Shown here: positions 10,372-20,146 of the stretch, piece by piece
Numbering within the stretch: position 1 is the stretch's first letter
How the letters are laid out: each line of letters opens with the position of its first letter
Notes under the pieces: generated by a model
What the model was told of the DNA's origin: nothing
Databases searched by the model: none
The model's input: only the letters and a program-made list of their open reading frames with translations
Assembly: GCA_963712115.1 (NCBI GenBank)
Contig: CAVQGX010000020.1
Location: 160,001-224,000, forward strand
From: an uncultured delta proteobacterium
Lineage (GTDB): Bacteria; Desulfobacterota; Syntrophobacteria; BM002
Reading direction: 5' to 3'
Length of the DNA: 64,000 bases
Translations under genes and position numbers: made by a program

Positions 10372-11736
10372 ATGGAAGAGAAGCGAATTCTCGTAATAGA
10401 CGATGAAGAAAACATGCGCCACATGCTGGCTGTGCTCTTGGAGAAAGAGGGCTATCAGGTGGAAAGTGCTGCTAACGGTAAGGAGGGCCTCGGCCTTGCC
10501 TTGGAGAGTTTTTACGACATAATCCTCTGCGATCTGAAGATGCCGGTTATGGACGGAATGGCCTTTCTGCAAAACTTTCAAGATAGCGGCCAGGAATCTA
10601 CCGTAATTGTGATGTCCGCCTATGGAACCCTGGATACGGCAATCGAGGCCATGAAACTGGGGGCTTATGATTATGTGTCCAAGCCCTTCAAAGCCGATGA
10701 AATTCTTCTCACCTTGAGAAAGGCCGAGGAACGGGAGCTACTTCGGAAAGAGAACCGGCTGCTACAGCAGTCAATGCGGGATCGTTACAGCTTCGCCCAG
10801 ATGATTGGCCCCAGCCCGGGCATGCAGGAAATCTTTGCTACCATTGAAAAGGTGGCAGATTACAAAACCTCGGTGCTCATTACCGGAGAGAGTGGTACCG
10901 GCAAGGAGCTCATCGCCCGGGCCATTCATTACAACAGCTCGCGGGCTGACAAGCCTTTGGTTACGGTTAACTGTGGTGCCATTCCCGAAAATCTGCTGGA
11001 AAGTGAGCTTTTCGGCCACAAGAAGGGCGCCTTTACCGACGCAATCAGAGACAAGAAGGGTCTGTTTCAGGAAGCCCATGGGGGTTCAATTTTACTGGAT
11101 GAAATAGGAGAGTTGCCTCGCCAACTCCAAGTGAAGCTTCTCAGGGCACTGCAGGAAGAGGAAATCAAGCGGGTGGGGGATAACCAATCCATTAAAATAG
11201 ATATCCGGGTTATGGCGGCCACCACCAAAGACCTGGCAGAGGAGGTAAAGGGTGGTCGTTTTCGAGATGATCTCTATTATCGCATTAATGTTCTCCACAT
11301 AGCAGTACCGCCCCTCCGTGAACGTCAAGAGGACATCCCCTTGCTGATTCAGCACTTTATTGATAAAACGAGTAAGCGGCTTAACTCGGACGTGACCGGA
11401 GTCAGTCCTGCTGCCGGAAGAGCCCTGCAAGCCTATTCGTGGCCTGGAAACGTAAGGGAGTTGGAAAACATCATCGAACGGGCTATGGTGATGGCTAACG
11501 GTTCTACCATTGGGCGAGAGGATCTGCCCTCTTACTTGCAGCCCCAGGAAGAAACGGTGGAATACTTCACTGATGATGAAAACCTCTCCATAAAAGAGGC
11601 CAGTAGGAAATTGGAAAAAGTGCTCATTCGGAAGGCCCTGGAAAAAACGGCGGGCAACCGGACTCAAGCTGCAAAAATACTGGAAATCAGCCACCCGGCC
11701 CTACTATATAAGATGAAGGACTATGGGCTGGAGTGA
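10372..11736 (+). CDS. Sigma-54-dependent response regulator (NtrC/PilR/AtoC family)
   Basis: Receiver, GESGTGKE Walker A, ESELFGHKKGAFTDA, LLDEIGE, WPGNVRELEN, C-terminal Fis-type HTH. Confidence 0.95.
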   Translation: MEEKRILVIDDEENMRHMLAVLLEKEGYQVESAANGKEGLGLALESFYDIILCDLKMPVMDGMAFLQNFQDSGQESTVIVMSAYGTLDTAIEAMKLGAYDYVSKPFKADEILLTLRKAEERELLRKENRLLQQSMRDRYSFAQMIGPSPGMQEIFATIEKVADYKTSVLITGESGTGKELIARAIHYNSSRADKPLVTVNCGAIPENLLESELFGHKKGAFTDAIRDKKGLFQEAHGGSILLDEIGELPRQLQVKLLRALQEEEIKRVGDNQSIKIDIRVMAATTKDLAEEVKGGRFRDDLYYRINVLHIAVPPLRERQEDIPLLIQHFIDKTSKRLNSDVTGVSPAAGRALQAYSWPGNVRELENIIERAMVMANGSTIGREDLPSYLQPQEETVEYFTDDENLSIKEASRKLEKVLIRKALEKTAGNRTQAAKILEISHPALLYKMKDYGLE

Positions 11737-11798
11737 TATATCTCTGTAAGAGCAAGCTCTGCTTGCCAAAAAGAGGACTTAGAGTACTGGAGTAACTA

Positions 11799-11933
11799 AA
11801 AATTCCAAATAACAAATTACAAATTCCAAACAAATCACAATGACCAAAATTCAAAATTCCAAGCCTGTTTTGGTCATTTAGTATTGGAATTTGAGATTTG
11901 TTTGTAATTTGGTGCTTGAGATTTGTTATTTTG
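11799..11933. repeat. 7-nt-period inverted-repeat array
   Basis: aaattccaaataacaaattacaaattccaaacaaatcacaatgaccaaaa...ttttggtcattt...gatttgtttgtaatttggtgcttgagatttgttattt. Confidence 0.8.
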
Positions 11934-12025
11934 CAATGCATCATCACTCAATTAATTCAACATTATGAGAAAAAGGTCATTGAAGCCCCCCCGGGGTTGG
12001 CTAAGGGGCACCGAAGAGGTAAATA

Positions 12026-12954
12026 ATGTTCCGTAAAGTAATGACTATTCTTGATGGTAATGGGTATTTTCGCGTTGCAGTCAGCAGGCAGAATATGGGG
12101 ACGATAGGGCAACTTCCGAGTCTGTGGGCGACGGAGCTACCAGAATCAGGTCTGTGTGGATTGAACCGGCAAATCCAGCCAGCAATAATAATCTTACCGC
12201 TGAGGTGCTCGTCCGAGGCGAAACCGGATCTCGGCTGAACTACCAGTGGCTGAGAAACAACGTTCCCATACCTGGAGCCATTCGACAGATTCTTCCCAGC
12301 GAGCAATTTAGCAAGGGAGATTTTGTTTCGGTACAAGTCAGGGTTGCTCAGGCTGGAGGCGACAGAGACCCGGTGACCTCCGATGCGGTCCTCATCGGCA
12401 ACACTCCCCCTGTAGTTGCCTGGGTAGCCATCGGCCCTGCACCGCCCAGTTCCACCAGCAGTCTCGAGGCGGTGGCGAAAGGCAGTGACCTGGACAATGA
12501 TGAACTGAGTTTCTCTTACCAATGGACAGTTAATGGAGAGCCTGTGGTGGGCCCGGAAGGTCCATCCCTGGCCAGCAACTATTTCAAACGTGGCGATCAG
12601 GTAGAAGTAACAGCCGTGCCTTTTGACGGCACTGATTGGGGCCAACCTGGCAGCTCGATCAAGGTGACTATTAGCAACAGTCCCCCGATTATTAAATCCA
12701 CTCCTCCGGGAGAGTTAAGAGAAGGGACCACTTATCGCTACCAGGTTGAGGCAGAAGATGCTGATGGCGATACCCTGAGTTTCTCACTCCAGGGCGAGCC
12801 GCCAAAAGGTATGGTGATCGATGCAAAGACCGGAGTGGTGGAGTGGCAGGTAGTAATCCCCGAAGAGCCGGTAACCTATGTGTACGAAGTGGTGGTGGAA
12901 GACCCCGAAGGAGCCAAGAGTATCCAGAAGGTAACTTTGAAGAATGCTTCATGA
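12026..12954 (+). CDS. Probable lipoprotein with Ig-like/cadherin-like domains (indels in the signal-peptide region)
   Basis: Repeated YQW...GD.V.V.V...NxPP Ig modules and a C-terminal YQVEAEDADGDTLSFSL...GMVIDAKTGVVEW; upstream in-frame CSQQAEY preceded by a hydrophobic stretch in shifted frames. Confidence 0.7.
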
Positions 12955-13078
12955 TGTAGACTGCATGCGCAAAGAGCATAGAGTTAGGGGCAAAAGGCTT
13001 GAGGCTCAAGGCGCAAGGAGAAATGATTCCGCAGATTGCGGACTGCGTATATTGATTTAGCTAATCGAAGAAATGCTC

Positions 13079-13159
13079 GATGTGGGATGTGAGATCTGAG
13101 ATGTGGGATGGAAGATAGAGGTTAAGGATCCCACATCTCACATCGCATATCTCATATCC
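13079..13159. repeat. 7-nt-period GATGTGG/CACATC inverted-repeat array
   Basis: gatgtgggatgtgagatctgagatgtgggatg...atcccacatctcacatcgcatatctcatatc. Confidence 0.8.
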
Positions 13160-13199
13160 ATAATTTCTCCTGAAAGAAGAAGAATTAATAAGGTGTATA

Positions 13200-14240
13200 A
13201 TGATGACTTTCCGTAGTTCTCTGAAATGGCAGATCGTTCTTCTTGTTGGTCTCATAGGAGGCTTCTACTCAGGCTTTGCCCAGGCAGTTACCCCTGAAGC
13301 CAAGCCGGTTATGGAAATACCATCTCCCCGCCACGACGCCGGCACCCACTGGGAAGGAGAGGTAGTATCCCATGATTTTGAGGTGAGAAATTCCGGTAAT
13401 GGTGAGCTCAAGATTCTCAGCGTGAAACCCGGGTGAGGCTGCTCAGTGGTCCGCTACGATCGGACCATCCCGCCAGGTGGGGTGGGTCAGGTTACTCTTA
13501 CAGGTCAACACCAGTGGTTTCCAGGGCAGACTCACCAAGAATGCGCAGGTGACCACCAATGACCCCAGACAACGGAACAGCAAGATCTACCTTTCCATCG
13601 ATGTCCGCGCCCATATACTTGTGGAGCCGGGGCCCAAGATAATGCTCCAGGGCATTGTTGGCGACGACATTCAAAGTGTGGTCCATATCCGCTCTGCCGG
13701 GAACCAACCATTTGAGATCACCAGGATTGAGACCAATCTGCAATCAGTCATCGATTACAAACTGAATCGCAAGGATGATAGCAACCAGTACACCCTGGAG
13801 GTGGTCAGCAAGGCTGCCGACCAGAAAACCGCCAGTGGATTTCTGACCTTGCACACCAACCATCCCAAGAAGAAGTTAGTTAAGCTATCTGTCCACCTCC
13901 GGGTCAAACCGGAAATTCAGGTCTGGCCCAATAGGGTTGACTTCTATGAGGAATCCAAATCCGGGACCAAAGGGAAAACAAACAAGCGCACCCTCATCGT
14001 AATGAACAACCGGGGCAAGAGCTTTAGGATTAGAGAACTGAACTATAATAGGGACTATTTTCAGGTGCGTTCCTTGGCAAAGAATGACGACCCTGCCAGG
14101 AGATATCAATTTGAAGTAATACCGTTGGCAGATCAGCTGCCTGCGGAAGGTTAGAGTTTCAGGACACCTCGACCATCAGGACAGACAGCGCTAAAGCCGG
14201 GGAACTCAAAATACCGCTGAGTATTAGAATAAAACAATGA
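13200..14240 (+). CDS. Secreted DUF1573-like (Ig-fold) protein, probable selenoprotein (UGA at 13434-13436); indels near 13497 and 14147
   Basis: Signal peptide ...AQA, HDFEVRNSGNGELKILSVKPG-TGA-GCSVVRYDRTIPPGGVGQV, then KNAQVTTNDP: the DUF1573 pattern with U in place of the first C of CGC. Confidence 0.8.
13446..13468 (+). promoter_or_regulatory. Candidate bacterial SECIS element
   Basis: Perfect 7-bp stem TGGTCCG/CGGACCA with G-containing loop CTACGAT, starting at the 11th nucleotide after the in-frame TGA. Confidence 0.75.
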
Positions 14241-14366
14241 CGCATAGCGCAGAGCGAAAAAACAGAGGAGTCATAAGTCAGGAGTCAGAATCCAATAGGC
14301 AAAGAGCAAAGGGCATGGGGTTGAAATCTCCAAATTGTCCTTCCGACTCCCACCGTACATTCTGAA

Positions 14367-14458
14367 TGTCCTGCTTTCGCAGGAATGACGATTAAATAAC
14401 CGATTAGATCATTCTGGTCCCGCATCAAGTGCGGGATAAACTCCGGCGGGAATCCAGA
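14367..14458. repeat. GTCATTCC..GAAAGC..GGAATCCAG-type palindromic repeats with an inner hairpin
   Basis: tcctgctttcgcaggaatgac and tcattctgg[tcccgcatcaagtgcgggataaa]ctccggcgggaatccag. Confidence 0.6.
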
Positions 14459-14553
14459 CGAGATCATTTCAAGTCAATCTGCAATTTGAAATCTAAAATC
14501 TCAAATGTCCTCTGTGCCCTCTCCCCCTGACCAAAAATCCCCCCTTATAGACA

Positions 14554-14680
14554 ATTGAATATCGAACAGCAGAACAAGGAACCGTAGAATCATGAAGTGA
14601 TCACTTCGATATTCGATATTCCTTGTTCGATATTCTGCGGTTTAGAAGCCTGACGGGCAAGCGTAAAACCCGCCCCTACT
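14554..14680. repeat. Empty GAATATCGAACAAGG element plus adjacent GTAG-type REP
   Basis: gaatatcgaacagcagaacaaggaaccgtagaatcatgaagtgatcacttcgatattcgatattccttgttcgatattctgcggttt followed by gggcaagcgtaaaacccgcccctac. Confidence 0.85.
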
Positions 14681-14731
14681 ATTATAGATCCCCAATTTGC
14701 TCTCCTCAGCGGCAGAGGAAAAGAATGATCC

Positions 14732-14768
14732 AAAAAAAATCCCCCCTCGATCAGAGGGGGGATTTTTT
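14732..14768. terminator. Bidirectional rho-independent terminator after pilY1-1
   Basis: AAAAAAAATCCCCCCTC-GATCA-GAGGGGGGATTTTTT between convergent transcription units. Confidence 0.9.
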
Positions 14769-14796
14769 AATGGGTTATAGAGGAGAAAGTTAATGT

Positions 14797-17700
14797 TTAC
14801 TCTTCCATCCAGTAGGTCTTGCCGGACTTGACCGCACCCGGGTTTGCCTGCTCGATGACCAGGATCGCCCCGGTGCTGGTCTGGACAAAGGCCTTGGTGC
14901 CTTTTTCTCGCCCGGTGTGCATGGCCGGAGAAACGGCAAGTCCCTTACCCAGAGATTGCTTTCTCAATACATCCTTACTGGTGCCATCACCAGGATCAAG
15001 ATTCGCACCATAGCCGATGACCGAACTGCTGAAAGCGGTGCCGGTCTTGTAGTAGGTGGCGTAGAAATAACTGTCACCTTCATTCTGACAGGCGTTGGGG
15101 TCGGGAGCGTAGGTGGTGAAGGTCAAGATGTCTCCCAGCAGTGCGGCCTGGCCCAGATTTCTTTCCCTGATGGCTGAGAAGTGCAATTTCCAGCCGTTGG
15201 GAAAGATGTCAGTGGTCGGAGCCGGATCATTGTCACCAGGATATGGATCTTTCTCCATCTCTTCTTCCAGCGCCATAAAGGTACCCAAGGTGTTATTTTC
15301 CAAATCCTTTACGTCGGTGAAGACAGACCCGTTGTAGTTTTTGATGTTTCCACTCTCGAAAACCACGGTGTCGCTCACATCCATAAGATAAGCGGATGAG
15401 ACTTCCTCCCAGGTCATTTCATTTTCCAGATCGGTGGTGCCGTCGCCATCGGTGTCCTTATTTACATCCACCAGGTTATTTTCGTGGCCGACGGTGTCTT
15501 CCCAGGGTTCCTTGATGCCGTAGTAGGATTGCTGACTGGTGTCGGCCACGTCCGCATAATTGGCAAAGCGGCCGGTGCCGAAAAACACCCAGGTCCGTTT
15601 CTTCCAGTCCATGGCCACCGTGGGTGCGGTGCTTATCGGTTGACCGGTATCAATCAAGATGGAATCCGTATCCCAGGAACTTGGAGAAGTGGGAAGGATG
15701 GTATTCTCCGGGTCACTCAGGACGAGACGCCGCAGTTTGCCTCCCAAAAAACCGGTGGAAGAGAGGGAAACAGTGCCGAAATACATGGCGTCTGTGGCGT
15801 AATCCAGGTCCAGGTCCACGGTGATGAAATCCGATATCTGACTATTGTTGTCAAAGCCGGCACCGTCCTCAAAAGGTCCGGCAGGTGATCCACCCGTTAA
15901 GGCACTGCCGTTGGGGTCTACCAGGGATCCGCTGGCAACCAGGTGTTTCAGGTCAACCATATAGATCCTGGCCTGCTGACTGCTCAGCCCATGTTTCAGG
16001 TCTGAGATGGAGTTAATGGTATCCACCACAATTTTGGGGTCCGTATCCCAGTTATACGAGCCATTGTTGTTCTCGTCATGATATACTCTCTCGCCGTTTG
16101 CGAACCAACCCACAACATTGGTGACGGTGATCAACTTATTAACCGTATCCTTGGAGACAAACTCGGCCCTTGCTCCCGAGGTTTCACCGACCATCAGGTC
16201 TCCCACCGAGAAGGTCTTGGTGTCAGAGGAATACTTGAGCCGTGCCCCATTTGGGCCGGAGCCCAGCACCAGGTACCAGTCGTTGGGGTCGGAGCCGGTG
16301 TCCTTACTCTTTACCACTATGGCACCGGGGTAGCTGGTGGTAAAGCCCAGATCGTCGAAGGAGATCTCCGCCAACAGTTCAGGCGCAATCTCCGGGTTGG
16401 TTATATCCATGACCACGTAGGCGGACTTCATGATCTGATCACCACTTTCATAGATGCCGTCGTGGTCCTTGTCCGTTCTGATCTTGCCGCCACCAAAGCC
16501 CATGCCGCACACCAGAACAGTGCCCCAGCCTCCGGGGTGCGTTCCAGTGGGGCCGTCATCCGCGAAGATCTTGGCATCGAATACTTTCGGCTTGGAATCA
16601 ACGTAGAAGACGTGCTCGTAATTGGGTTTGCCGAACCAGTAGAGGTGGGGCAGCAGGTTAAAGGGTACGTAACCCCACAATTCCGCCCCCAGGTCATAGG
16701 CAGACTCAGAGCCGCCGTAACTCTGTTTACCAAATTCCCACCTACCATCCACAGGGTCGTAGTAGAAAAAGCCTCCATTGAAGGCGTGCAACATGCCGTC
16801 GTTTCCACCCGCGTAGATGACCTTGCGTCTATCCTTGTACTTGAGCCAGAAGTACCGGTAGGAGACGTCAGCATAGAGCAGGTCGTAGTTTTCCGCCGGC
16901 GTTCCCACCAGGGTGGCGGTTGAGCCGATGATGTCCCCGAGCCTGTAGGTGGCGTCCATCGAAGAATCGCCGTCGGAATCATATTTCCGGCTTCTCATGC
17001 TGGTCTGGTCCTTGCCGCGGATGTAATCAATCTGTTTCGTGGCCAGCGTGCCCACTTCAGATAAGGTAAGGGATTTGGTAAATGGCTCTGCCAAGTGGAG
17101 GTAAGGTTTGATGGCATCGAGGTTTTGAGCTGGAGAAGAGGAAAAGGCAATCTTCTCACCACTGTCGGCTACCATGTCGTTGTCCGCGTCAATGAAAGTG
17201 AACACGTACCTGGCTTTGTCCGTGGCGGTGTAGGCTTTATTTTGCAGAATCACAGCGTCACTCAGAAAGTTGAGCCATTTGCTGGCGGACCACAGATACT
17301 TAATGGTATCCAGGCTCTCTTCCGGAGGACTTTGCGCACTCTTTTCGCTCGCGGTTAGCTCACCGTTTCCATCGGTGTCAACGTACTTTTTCAGCACTCC
17401 GGGGTTGAAGGCATCGAATTCGATGACCTTGTCAGTGGCGTTATCCAGAGCCAGGTTGGCGTTGGTATCCTCTCTTAACTCCCCGTATCCGTCCACCAGG
17501 AGAGCGTGCACGTCACCCACCCAGGATACGTTTTTGTACTTGGGGTAGAAGATGGACTGATAGGTGGCGCCCTCGCCCGAGCGCGATGCTGAGAGAACCG
17601 AGGCTGAGGTGCCTGCGGTGGCCCGCTCCAGGATGGCGAGGAAAGCCCGGTTCAAATTCCTCTCCAGAAGCAAAGGATTTTGCACATAGAAGTAATTGTC

Positions 17701-20146
17701 CGGGGTGCCATCCTCGTTTTCGTCCCATTCAGCAGGCAGGTCCGGAACACCGTTGGAGTTGTGGTCCAGGAAGCTTCCCCATTTGGCCGCATACCACAGT
17801 GGGTTTTTCAGCAGTTCCGCCGTGCCGCTGGTACCCGGGGAAAAATATCTGAAGGCCGTCAACGGTAAAGCTGTATTATCATCCCAGGTTCCACCAGGAT
17901 CCTGTCCCGGCGGGGTGTCCAGGAAGTAGTCGACATCACCATTCTCACCGTCAGGTTCATCTATTGCATTGTCGGTATCAGCATCCCTCACCTCCAGATA
18001 GGTGCCATCCTTGGTTGTCCCCGAGATGATGTAGCCCATGTGCTGGATGATACACCCCGAGGCGTACACCCCACCGTCCACGGTGACCAGCACCTGGGTG
18101 CCCTCCTCCGGGGTGGCAGCCTCAGTGTAGTCCGCCTTGAGTACCTGATAGGTATACCTGGCTATGGCGTCCATGTCGTGGTCGGCGGCCTGCTCCACGT
18201 CCTCGAAGTTGATGCGGAACTGACCAGAGGTGGGGGTTATAGCTTTCCACGTAGAAGTCGACGATGGTGTTAGTGGGAGTGAAGGCGTTGTCAGGTTTAA
18301 TGTCGAGACAGCCCCCCACCGATTTGGCGAAGGGAACCAGGGTGATGGTCTTGAGCGGATTTCCCAGGCTGATTTCGATCTTCGGCAAAGGTGATGCCAA
18401 CCCCACGGTGTAGGTCAACACCTTCTGCTCGTTTGTTGCCGAGTTCAAATCCTCCTTATGGCCGTAATAGGCAACAGCAGCGGAATAGTAGCCCCCCTGC
18501 TTGGTGGGCTCCTCCGGGCAGAGACCGCGAACATCTTTCAGGGTGGAGAGGGACTTGGGTGCACAAGAGCTGTCGTAACTCCCACCCTTGTCGCCGATGT
18601 AGTAGTCGCCGGAGATATTTTCATAGGAGGAGATGTCATCCAGCTCCTTCTCGACGTTCAGTTTACTGCCTGAGGTTCCCAGGGTCACTTCCGGCCATTT
18701 GCTGCCGCCCTCGTCTTCGAAATTACTTCCAGGCAGCTGGTCAGCATCGTAGGAAGGGTTGATGTCGCTGATGACCAGCATGAAGGGCTGGCTGCACCAA
18801 CGATCGCTGGGCGAATAGGGGTCATCCCAGGTAGCCTTGGGAAGGCCCAGGCTGACGTCGTCTCCGGTGCTGTAGTCAAACGCGCTTGTGGCTGAACCGG
18901 CACCGGCAAAATACCTCAACCCCTCGTACATCATCTCCGCTGTGGGGTTGCCCCAATCGGGAAACTCCCCTGCGACCATGGCCCGAGTCGTTACCCAGGC
19001 GTCCGGCCAATGGGGCTTGTAGGACTCCTCGTCGTAGACGTAGTTGAAGATCCTTATCTTGTCTATGGTTTTGATGATGCCCTTGACGTTACTGTCATCC
19101 AGGTATTCGAACTCGCCGGTCTGCGAGTCGATTTCATCCGAAATCAAGCTAATGGTCTTGCGCAGGACACCTCCGGCGGTATTTTTGGCATAAGATCCGC
19201 TAATGAGGCCGAAGAGCATCTGCTCGGTCTCGCCATATCGTTGCAGCAAACCAATAGGTTTTTGAGGATCGGTGCTGACACCGAATTTGCCGTCGGTGCC
19301 GGGATAGATTTTACAGTTGCTCTCGAGCCCGGCTGTAAGATCACACACCAAGACCCTGACCGTATAGTCTGTCGGAGACACTGAAGTGCCACCCTCCAGC
19401 TCGTCGCCCGCAACTGGACTTTCCTTGGAGACCCATTGCCAGATCCGTTCGGACCTGTTTTGGAGCAGGCGCAATATGGGTGTGCCGTTATCGGAAAGGG
19501 TGGTGGAGGCGAACAGGTGCCTGGTGCCGGCACTGGGCAGGGCAAGAGGCGAATACTCGGTGATGTCGTAGCCGTCAGTGGCCACGTCCTTGTATTCCTT
19601 TCCCCAGCTGTGGGCATCCTGGGGAACGTAGGCTCTTTGTAATACCGTTTCAGTGGGCGTGTCGGTGGAGCGGTAGCCACCGTAGAGCACCTTGCGCATG
19701 GCGTCCATGCGGGTCATGGTGAGATAGTTCAGGAGATCTCCACTCCATTCACTACCCCCTGAACAGGCCTTGTCATTGGTCCCGGCAGCATTACTTACGC
19801 TGAGGGAGGTGGGCTCAAATCTGCTGTTTTGATAGGTGTAGCACTTGTAGCTGTCGAAGTAGCCGTAGTAGTCTATGTCGTCAGGCTTGTAGCCCACATC
19901 CAGGTCTCCGTCCCCGTCCAAATCAGAGGCGTCGTTATAGGCCTCGTAGTAGAGCTTGTGGTCACGGCCCAGGACGATCATCACCAGGGGGGGGGCGGCT
20001 GCGGTGAGAAAGGGCGGCGTCATGGTATAGTCGCTGTTGTCTTCGTTAGCGGCCGCCAGAACCATGTTGGGACCCAAAGGGTTGGCAAAAGCGCAGATTA
20101 ATCCTGCCAAAACGATAATTAAGGTGATTTTTCTGAACATTTTCAT
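14797..20146 (-). CDS. pilY1: PilY1/PilC-family type IV pilus tip adhesin 1 (about 1780 aa; extra base near 18241)
   Basis: ORFs 18122..20326 and 14797..18198 join at ESITPTSGQFRINFEDVEQ; LGDIIGS, YAGGNDGMLHAFN, ELWGYVP, FFGTGR, VQTSTG propeller motifs; ATG 20146 has an RBS and a signal peptide. Confidence 0.9.

Follow-up and report, generated by a model that had tools for sequence, protein, structure and literature searches.

A probable OS_HP2 / DUF1573 selenoprotein gene with an in-frame UGA and two frame breaks in an uncultured delta proteobacterium

The stretch of 64,000 nucleotides analyzed here (the window), from the genome assembly of an uncultured delta proteobacterium, contains an open reading frame of 78 aa (13200..13436, +) that ends at a TGA (13434-13436). 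When this TGA is read through, the frame continues GCSVVRYDRTIPPGG, which gives VKPG-U-GCSVVRYDRTIPPGGVGQV. The question raised by the locus is whether the TGA terminates a short peptide or is decoded as selenocysteine (Sec) within one longer gene. A previous sequence-only reading had proposed the latter, in the form of a single exported protein of about 345 aa with a Sec-x-Cys site and a hairpin behind the TGA. The elements on which that proposal was built (the 78-aa open reading frame, its TGA, the VKPG-U-GC readthrough, and a 7-bp stem beginning at the 11th nucleotide) were all found in the sequence. The analyses described below led us to consider it very likely that the locus is one exported selenoprotein gene of the OS_HP2 family coding for about 345 aa, in which the UGA is recoded and the frame breaks are artefactual.

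Layout of the gene and origin of its two frame breaks

The gene starts at an ATG-ATG behind an AAGGTG motif. The claim of one exported protein of about 345 aa stood in part: the gene is open to 14240 if two 1-nt indels are allowed for, but the literal frame of 13200 stops at a second TGA at codon 121. The gene falls into three segments, and the following features were assigned:

13190..13195 (+): Shine-Dalgarno-like AAGGTG, 4 nt 5' of the ATG at 13200, predicted from the sequence
13200..13286 (+): predicted Sec-type signal peptide of 29 aa, MMTFRSSLKWQIVLLVGLIGGFYSGFAQA, from sequence features, with A-x-A ahead of the predicted cut
13200..13496 (+): segment A, in the frame of 13200, covering the signal peptide plus the N-terminal two thirds of the DUF1573 / OS_HP2 domain, Sec codon included
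13434..13436 (+): in-frame TGA, read as Sec (VKPG-U-GC) from the same codon at the same site in relatives
13446..13468 (+): SECIS-like hairpin, with an 8-bp stem (seven Watson-Crick pairs and one G-U) and a 7-nt loop, CUACGAU, from the minimum free energy structure and covariation
13497..13497 (+): frame break 1, one extra base (ACT-C-TTACAG versus ACT/ACC-TTACAG or -TTGCAA in four orthologs)
13498..14142 (+): segment B, in frame +1, covering the remainder of domain 1, the whole of domain 2, and the larger part of domain 3 (open reading frame 13477..14154)
14143..14145 (+): frame break 2, one missing base (GCCTG-CGG versus GCCTGCCGG or near in the five closest orthologs)
14148..14240 (+): segment C, again in the frame of 13200, with the last strands of domain 3, the last 30 codons, and the stop TGA at 14238-14240

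Segment B showed 53-78% identity to orthologs of the genus, in which segments A and B share one frame, and segment C aligned with the C-termini of the orthologs. Comparison with three orthologs gave dN/dS values of 0.23-0.31 for segment A, 0.19-0.30 for segment B, and 0.18-0.28 for segment C, the segments spanning both sides of the TGA. In the structure model of one ortholog (L018; see below), the signal-peptide region consists of a helix (residues 3-23) and a low-confidence linker (residues 26-29). Scanning of 11700-14900 for sigma-70 promoters and terminators yielded counts near shuffled expectation, and none was assigned. The intergenic region 5' of the gene contains GATGTGGGATG twice (13079-13089 and 13100-13110) and a 10-bp perfect inverted repeat, GATGTGGGAT ... 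ATCCCACATC (13100-13109 with 13130-13139).

Both 1-nt breaks (at about 13497 and about 14144) were absent from all the orthologs aligned. Contigs from public sequencing runs (Logan), which belong to relatives (the best run contains 0.30 of the sampled words), gave the same picture in four of four runs: one base was left out at 13496, 13497 or 13500, and one base was put in behind 14143 or 14144. Private frame switches were also detected elsewhere in the window, at about 5686, about 9009, and 18233-18312, where genes that occupy a single frame in relatives are distributed over two frames. The genes affected code for a 335-aa protein, a sensor kinase of 595-638 aa, and a 1822-aa PilY1-domain protein, respectively, and the 1133-aa open reading frame 14797..18198 (-) represents only the C-terminal part of its gene. 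On contig C22 of the same genome, a Cys-type DUF1573 paralogue is likewise frame-split, with its N-terminal part in another frame, which is likely another assembly indel. The errors seen in this assembly were thus indels, as had been anticipated, and the switches at the three other sites of the window indicated that 1-nt indel errors are frequent in it. Since so many private 1-nt breaks fall in conserved genes, they point to consensus indel errors in the assembly, and judging from the orthologs and the relatives' contigs, both breaks in the gene at 13200-14240 are probably assembly indels and not biology.

The alternative that best survives this evidence is a recent pseudogene: the family would be a selenoprotein family, and the copy in the window would be dead, both 1-nt indels being real mutations. 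In its favor, the literal sequence requires two frame corrections, and the public-run contigs available come from relatives and not from the source organism. However, between the two breaks an uninterrupted run of 215 codons shows purifying selection (dN/dS 0.19-0.30), and the same kind of private switch occurs in no fewer than three further genes inside about 15 kb and in the Cys paralogue on contig C22. A series of private switches like this is more easily explained by consensus indel errors than by the independent death of many genes. We therefore regard a pseudogene as unlikely, and the copy in the window is probably intact behind assembly errors.

The in-frame TGA and the hairpin downstream of it

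The Pfam model DUF1573 (PF07610) matched the read-through N-terminal piece of the protein at residues 40-101 with 44.9 bits (cut-off, 26.1), and this match runs unbroken over the TGA. A six-frame search of the genome also detected DUF1573, with 38.9 bits and one TGA inside the match. When 61 genomes, including the one studied here, were searched with a 225-aa middle piece of the protein, matches were obtained in 47 of them. Of 29 non-self loci then retrieved from relatives belonging to several families, 25 had the TGA at this position, within (K/R)P(G/S)-TGA-GGN-TGY. The remaining four loci were continuous and carried SCGC (L037 and L040), GCSC (L032), or GTGC (L045). Among public genomes, 79 of 80 fetched loci contained the motif, in the form UGC (73 loci), CGC (four), CSC (one), or TGC (one), and the UGC carriers included Desulfoferrobacter suflitae DRH4 and Desulforhabdus sp. 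TSK (names as in the records). The Cys-type paralogue mentioned above (G000:C22:123655-123864, +; locus L140) has SCGCT, the classical Cys form. The expectation that the TGA would align with Cys in homologues was thus borne out by L037, L040, L032, and this paralogue, and the CGC motif attributed to DUF1573 proteins at this site was recovered in L037 and L040 and in the four public CGC loci.

One form departs from this pattern: L045 / L089, from a MAG recorded as Syntrophobacteraceae, has Thr (ACA) at the Sec site (T-G-C) and yet conserves seven of seven hairpin pairs. This Thr form may represent a recent loss of Sec.

A true stop at this position, which is the reading of standard gene callers, would yield two products, a peptide of 78 aa and, downstream, an independent protein of about 267 aa, and open frames of 258-272 aa after the TGA do recur in relatives. 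Such a stop, however, would cut the DUF1573 domain in the middle of a beta-sandwich and would fall exactly on the first Cys of the family's CGC in 73 of 79 loci. Moreover, the Cys-containing homologues are continuous, and the frame after the TGA goes directly into GGN-TGY with no conserved start codon. On these grounds, we consider termination at 13434-13436 highly improbable. Least credible of all is that a TGC or TGT was turned into TGA by a base-calling or assembly error, or that the TGA encodes another amino acid under a variant code: the assembly does contain errors, but those seen here are indels, the same TGA occurs in dozens of independent assemblies, no other letter appeared at 13434-13436 among the matches listed (40, of 40 + 233, from four public runs), and TGA ends 15 of the 29 orthologous loci of relatives and is therefore a normal stop in these genomes. 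We conclude with high confidence that the UGA at 13434-13436 is decoded as Sec in one gene extending over 13200-14240 (+).

In bacteria, the SECIS of the Escherichia coli fdhF type is a hairpin within the coding sequence, beginning about 11 nt downstream of the UGA, with an apical loop that opens 17 nt after the UGA and contains a conserved G. These traits are common to the hairpin found here, which differs from the fdhF type in its loop (CUACGAU), in that a bulged U is not evident, and in the lack of an Rfam match: scanning of 13300-13600 against Rfam, with E values up to 10, returned two chance-level matches only and no SECIS family. The stem comprises seven perfect base pairs (TGGTCCG at 13447-13453 and CGGACCA at 13461-13467, with the loop CTACGAT at 13454-13460), its first base being the 11th nucleotide after the A of the TGA, and RNAfold adds a G13446-U13468 pair to give 8 bp. 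The fold energy of 13434-13490 was -25.8 kcal/mol (z = -1.64; 15 of 200 shuffles were as good), which is unremarkable alone, and the signal of the hairpin therefore resides in its conservation and covariation across relatives and not in its energy.

Covariation was analyzed in an ungapped alignment of 26 sequences (A1; pairs are numbered by alignment columns). The seven pairs were formed in 86.3% of the cells, compared with 76.8 +/- 1.4% in shuffles, and slid controls were 16-56% paired. Changes on both sides were observed in three of the seven pairs, namely 32-46 (U-A in 11 sequences and C-G in 11), 30-48 (G-C in 17 and C-G in 4), and 33-45, and the observed covariation score was reached by none of 500 shuffles. 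RNAalifold returned the same helix, with an outer G-U pair added (28-50; 25 of 26 sequences) and the inner pairs 34-44 and 35-43 dropped. The encoded residues co-vary with the stem (Val...Thr versus Ala...Ala), as is expected when RNA pairing constrains the coding sequence. Since the stem lies in the codons of a conserved peptide, V-A/V-x-F/Y-D-R-x-I, its conservation is partly protein-driven; the conserved G of the loop is the first base of the Asp codon.

In the public loci, the 73 Sec forms keep a mean of 5.63 of the seven pairs (46 of the 73 keep six or seven), and the non-Sec forms keep 4.17, the latter mean being that of only six sequences, among them the Thr form with seven of seven pairs. 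The four CGC forms keep two to four pairs, and in several Sec forms with low scores, the fold is shifted in register. Relatives combining the TGA with a hairpin, which had been looked for as support of the Sec reading, were therefore found both among the fetched loci (25 of 29) and among the public ones (73 of 79), with compensatory changes in the three stem pairs named above. From its position, conservation, and covariation, the hairpin at 13446-13468 would act, inside the coding sequence, as a bacterial SECIS, and this putative element would recruit SelB and Sec-tRNA(Sec) to the paused ribosome.

Downstream of this hairpin, a second stem, CCCNCC / GGN..GGG, is predicted at 13469-13486 (A1 columns 51-68), over invariant IPPGG codons. 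In 20 of the 26 sequences, its wobble positions 54 and 63 are paired, by six pair types in all. This second stem could be an extension of the SECIS, or it could simply result from the Pro-Pro-Gly-Gly codons.

Selenocysteine machinery in the genome

Decoding of the UGA as Sec calls for selA, selB, selD, and tRNA-Sec, and the genome was searched for all four. The three protein-coding genes were present: selA (518 bits), selB (75 bits for the SelB wing domain, in a frame of 649 aa), and selD (382 bits; G000:C22:26789-27709, +). The selD gene has one in-frame TGA inside its TIGR00476 match, and the SelD of this genome is itself of the selenoprotein type. Two outcomes named beforehand as refuting the Sec reading, a genome lacking the Sec machinery and relatives lacking the TGA with its hairpin, were not observed.

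The fourth component, tRNA-Sec, was not found in the assembly (94.4% complete, 70 contigs) by a search with RF01852, whose best matches, with 45.8 and 44.3 bits against a cut-off of 47 bits, were tRNA-Ser. Neither ARAGORN at its default threshold nor a blastn search with the tRNA-Sec of G002, a relative of the same genus, detected it in this assembly. Lowering the ARAGORN threshold (80%) produced many spurious tRNA-SeC calls, which were not used, and a regular-expression scan for the shape of tRNA-Sec gave one match that was not a tRNA. A search by synteny located the counterpart of the G002 gene that lies upstream of tRNA-Sec (C45:10176-11485; 93%), behind which the contig diverges without a tRNA-Sec. 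In contrast to this assembly, tRNA-Sec was detected in nine of 12 relatives of the genus, with about 75 bits, and G002, whose genome is a single contig, carries the TGA ortholog, tRNA-Sec, selB, and selA together. Since the assembly is incomplete and divided into 70 contigs, and since nine of the 12 relatives possess the tRNA, its absence is likely an assembly gap.

Family, structure, and possible function of the protein

The sequence-only reading had left open whether the family was already known to contain selenoproteins, and the literature provided the answer. OS_HP2 appears among the novel selenoproteins of Olavius symbionts in Table 2 of Zhang and Gladyshev (2007, NAR; PMC1976440), where it is assigned to the symbionts delta1 and delta4. 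The 2008 GOS study by the same authors has the entry "OS_HP2, pfam07610, UxC" (PMC2398784), and the selenoprotein tables of reviews from 2022 and 2026 contain "PF07610 UGC" (PMC9312934, PMC13188914). The curated model NF041425, "OS_HP2 family (seleno)protein" (cut-off, 100), gave 107 bits with the closest ortholog, L018, and 98.6 bits, just under the cut-off, with the ortholog L017. The two pieces of the window copy scored 65.3 bits (positions 2-60) and 28.4 bits, low values that are due to the splitting of the domain by the frame break. The gene at 13200-14240 is very likely a member of the already catalogued OS_HP2 / DUF1573 "UGC" selenoprotein family.

With this family it shares the Pfam domain, the U-G-C at the first Cys of CGC, the pairing of Sec with Cys, the SECIS-like hairpin right after the UGA, and the lineage, and nothing essential differs. 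The protein studied here has about 345 aa, with two further Ig-like domains to which no Pfam model gives a name, whereas NF041425 models a domain of 98 positions only, and the window copy is frame-broken. Cys-type DUF1573 proteins, represented by 2qsv of Porphyromonas gingivalis, share with it the Ig-like fold (Foldseek E 3.3e-9) and the position of the CGC motif; they differ in having Cys instead of Sec, so that a SECIS is not needed, and at the sequence level there is hardly any resemblance to 2qsv (phmmer E 0.54). In a full-text search covering titles and the beginnings of abstracts, no literature on the function of DUF1573 was found.

The structure was modeled with AlphaFold2 on the ortholog L018, using an alignment of 28 rows and Cys in place of Sec. 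The model (pLDDT 89.3) consists of an N-terminal helix, corresponding to the signal peptide, followed by three all-beta domains; strands 69-76 and 81-85 are joined by a turn that contains residues 77-80 (G-U-G-C). Among the residues near this site, those that are invariant or nearly so include H57, N63, G65, C80, D86, and the PPG at 90-92. The best Foldseek matches were HYDIN-type Ig arrays of ciliary central-apparatus entries (E down to 8.5e-17) and 2qsv, and the Pfam model PF22544 matched domain 1 with 26.9 bits (cut-off, 25.5). The likeness to HYDIN, CFA65, and VesB-like arrays (ASH, PapD-like) is at the level of the fold only, with 9-16% identity and TM scores of 0.2-0.3 over multi-domain chains, and it therefore has no functional implication. 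A search of the PDB by sequence gave nothing useful, the best match being to an unrelated Ig region (E 0.011). The signal peptide would be cleaved, and according to the model the mature protein would consist of three tandem Ig-like (ASH/PapD-like) beta-sandwich domains, with Sec-Gly-Cys in a predicted tight turn between two strands of domain 1.

A redox or metal site had been proposed for the Sec-x-Cys pair, which would lie exposed in a turn of a protein outside the cytoplasm. Sec usually occupies redox-active positions, according to one of the reviews cited above (PMC9312934). Quite possibly, the pair serves as an extracytoplasmic redox site, cycling between the selenol/thiol and selenenylsulfide forms. 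Binding of a soft metal by these residues is the principal alternative and a more doubtful one.

Analysis of the neighborhood with Pfam identified an Ig-domain protein (He_PIG/Big_9) next to the gene and a convergent gene coding for a PilY1-domain protein, in agreement with the Ig protein and the convergent pilus gene that had been named as its neighbors. Three relatives of the genus keep the order sensor kinase, sigma-54-type response regulator, He_PIG Ig protein, and selenoprotein, and one of them (G012) also has the convergent PilY1-domain gene. Outside the genus, no neighbor was kept, and among the 80 public loci, no neighbor family occurred in more than 14: the most frequent were an S41 peptidase (14 loci), a divergent polysaccharide deacetylase (14), a Rex-like protein (11), DsbD_TM (8), and rhodanese (8). 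No functional partner is therefore claimed. A DsbD_TM-family membrane protein (for instance, L139:1518-2225) or a rhodanese-domain protein (L097:4076-4609) adjoins the OS_HP2 gene in eight of the 80 loci each, and this hints weakly at a setting of thiol or sulfur chemistry outside the cytoplasm.

As a discovery, the gene carries little weight: published lists of selenoproteins have included its family from 2007 onward, and NCBIfam offers a curated model for it, which makes the gene a correct but ordinary find. Standard gene callers interrupt genes of this type at the TGA, and indels in error-prone assemblies fragment them further, so that such a gene will probably be overlooked or annotated as a pseudogene. 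A more far-reaching idea, which we put forward as speculation with a small chance of being right, is that the three-domain IPPGG branch constitutes a distinct extracytoplasmic selenoenzyme in which Sec is not replaceable by Cys. In this genus, such an enzyme may work with the adjoining cassette (sensor kinase, sigma-54-type response regulator, and He_PIG Ig protein) and with the convergent pilus genes (PilY1); one example would be a role as redox partner when the cell surface or pili are assembled. The 79 public loci of this branch include 73 with Sec and 5 with Cys. This strong preference for Sec, together with the carriage of the gene by cultured species (Desulfoferrobacter suflitae and Desulforhabdus sp. 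TSK), makes a labelling or knock-out experiment feasible.
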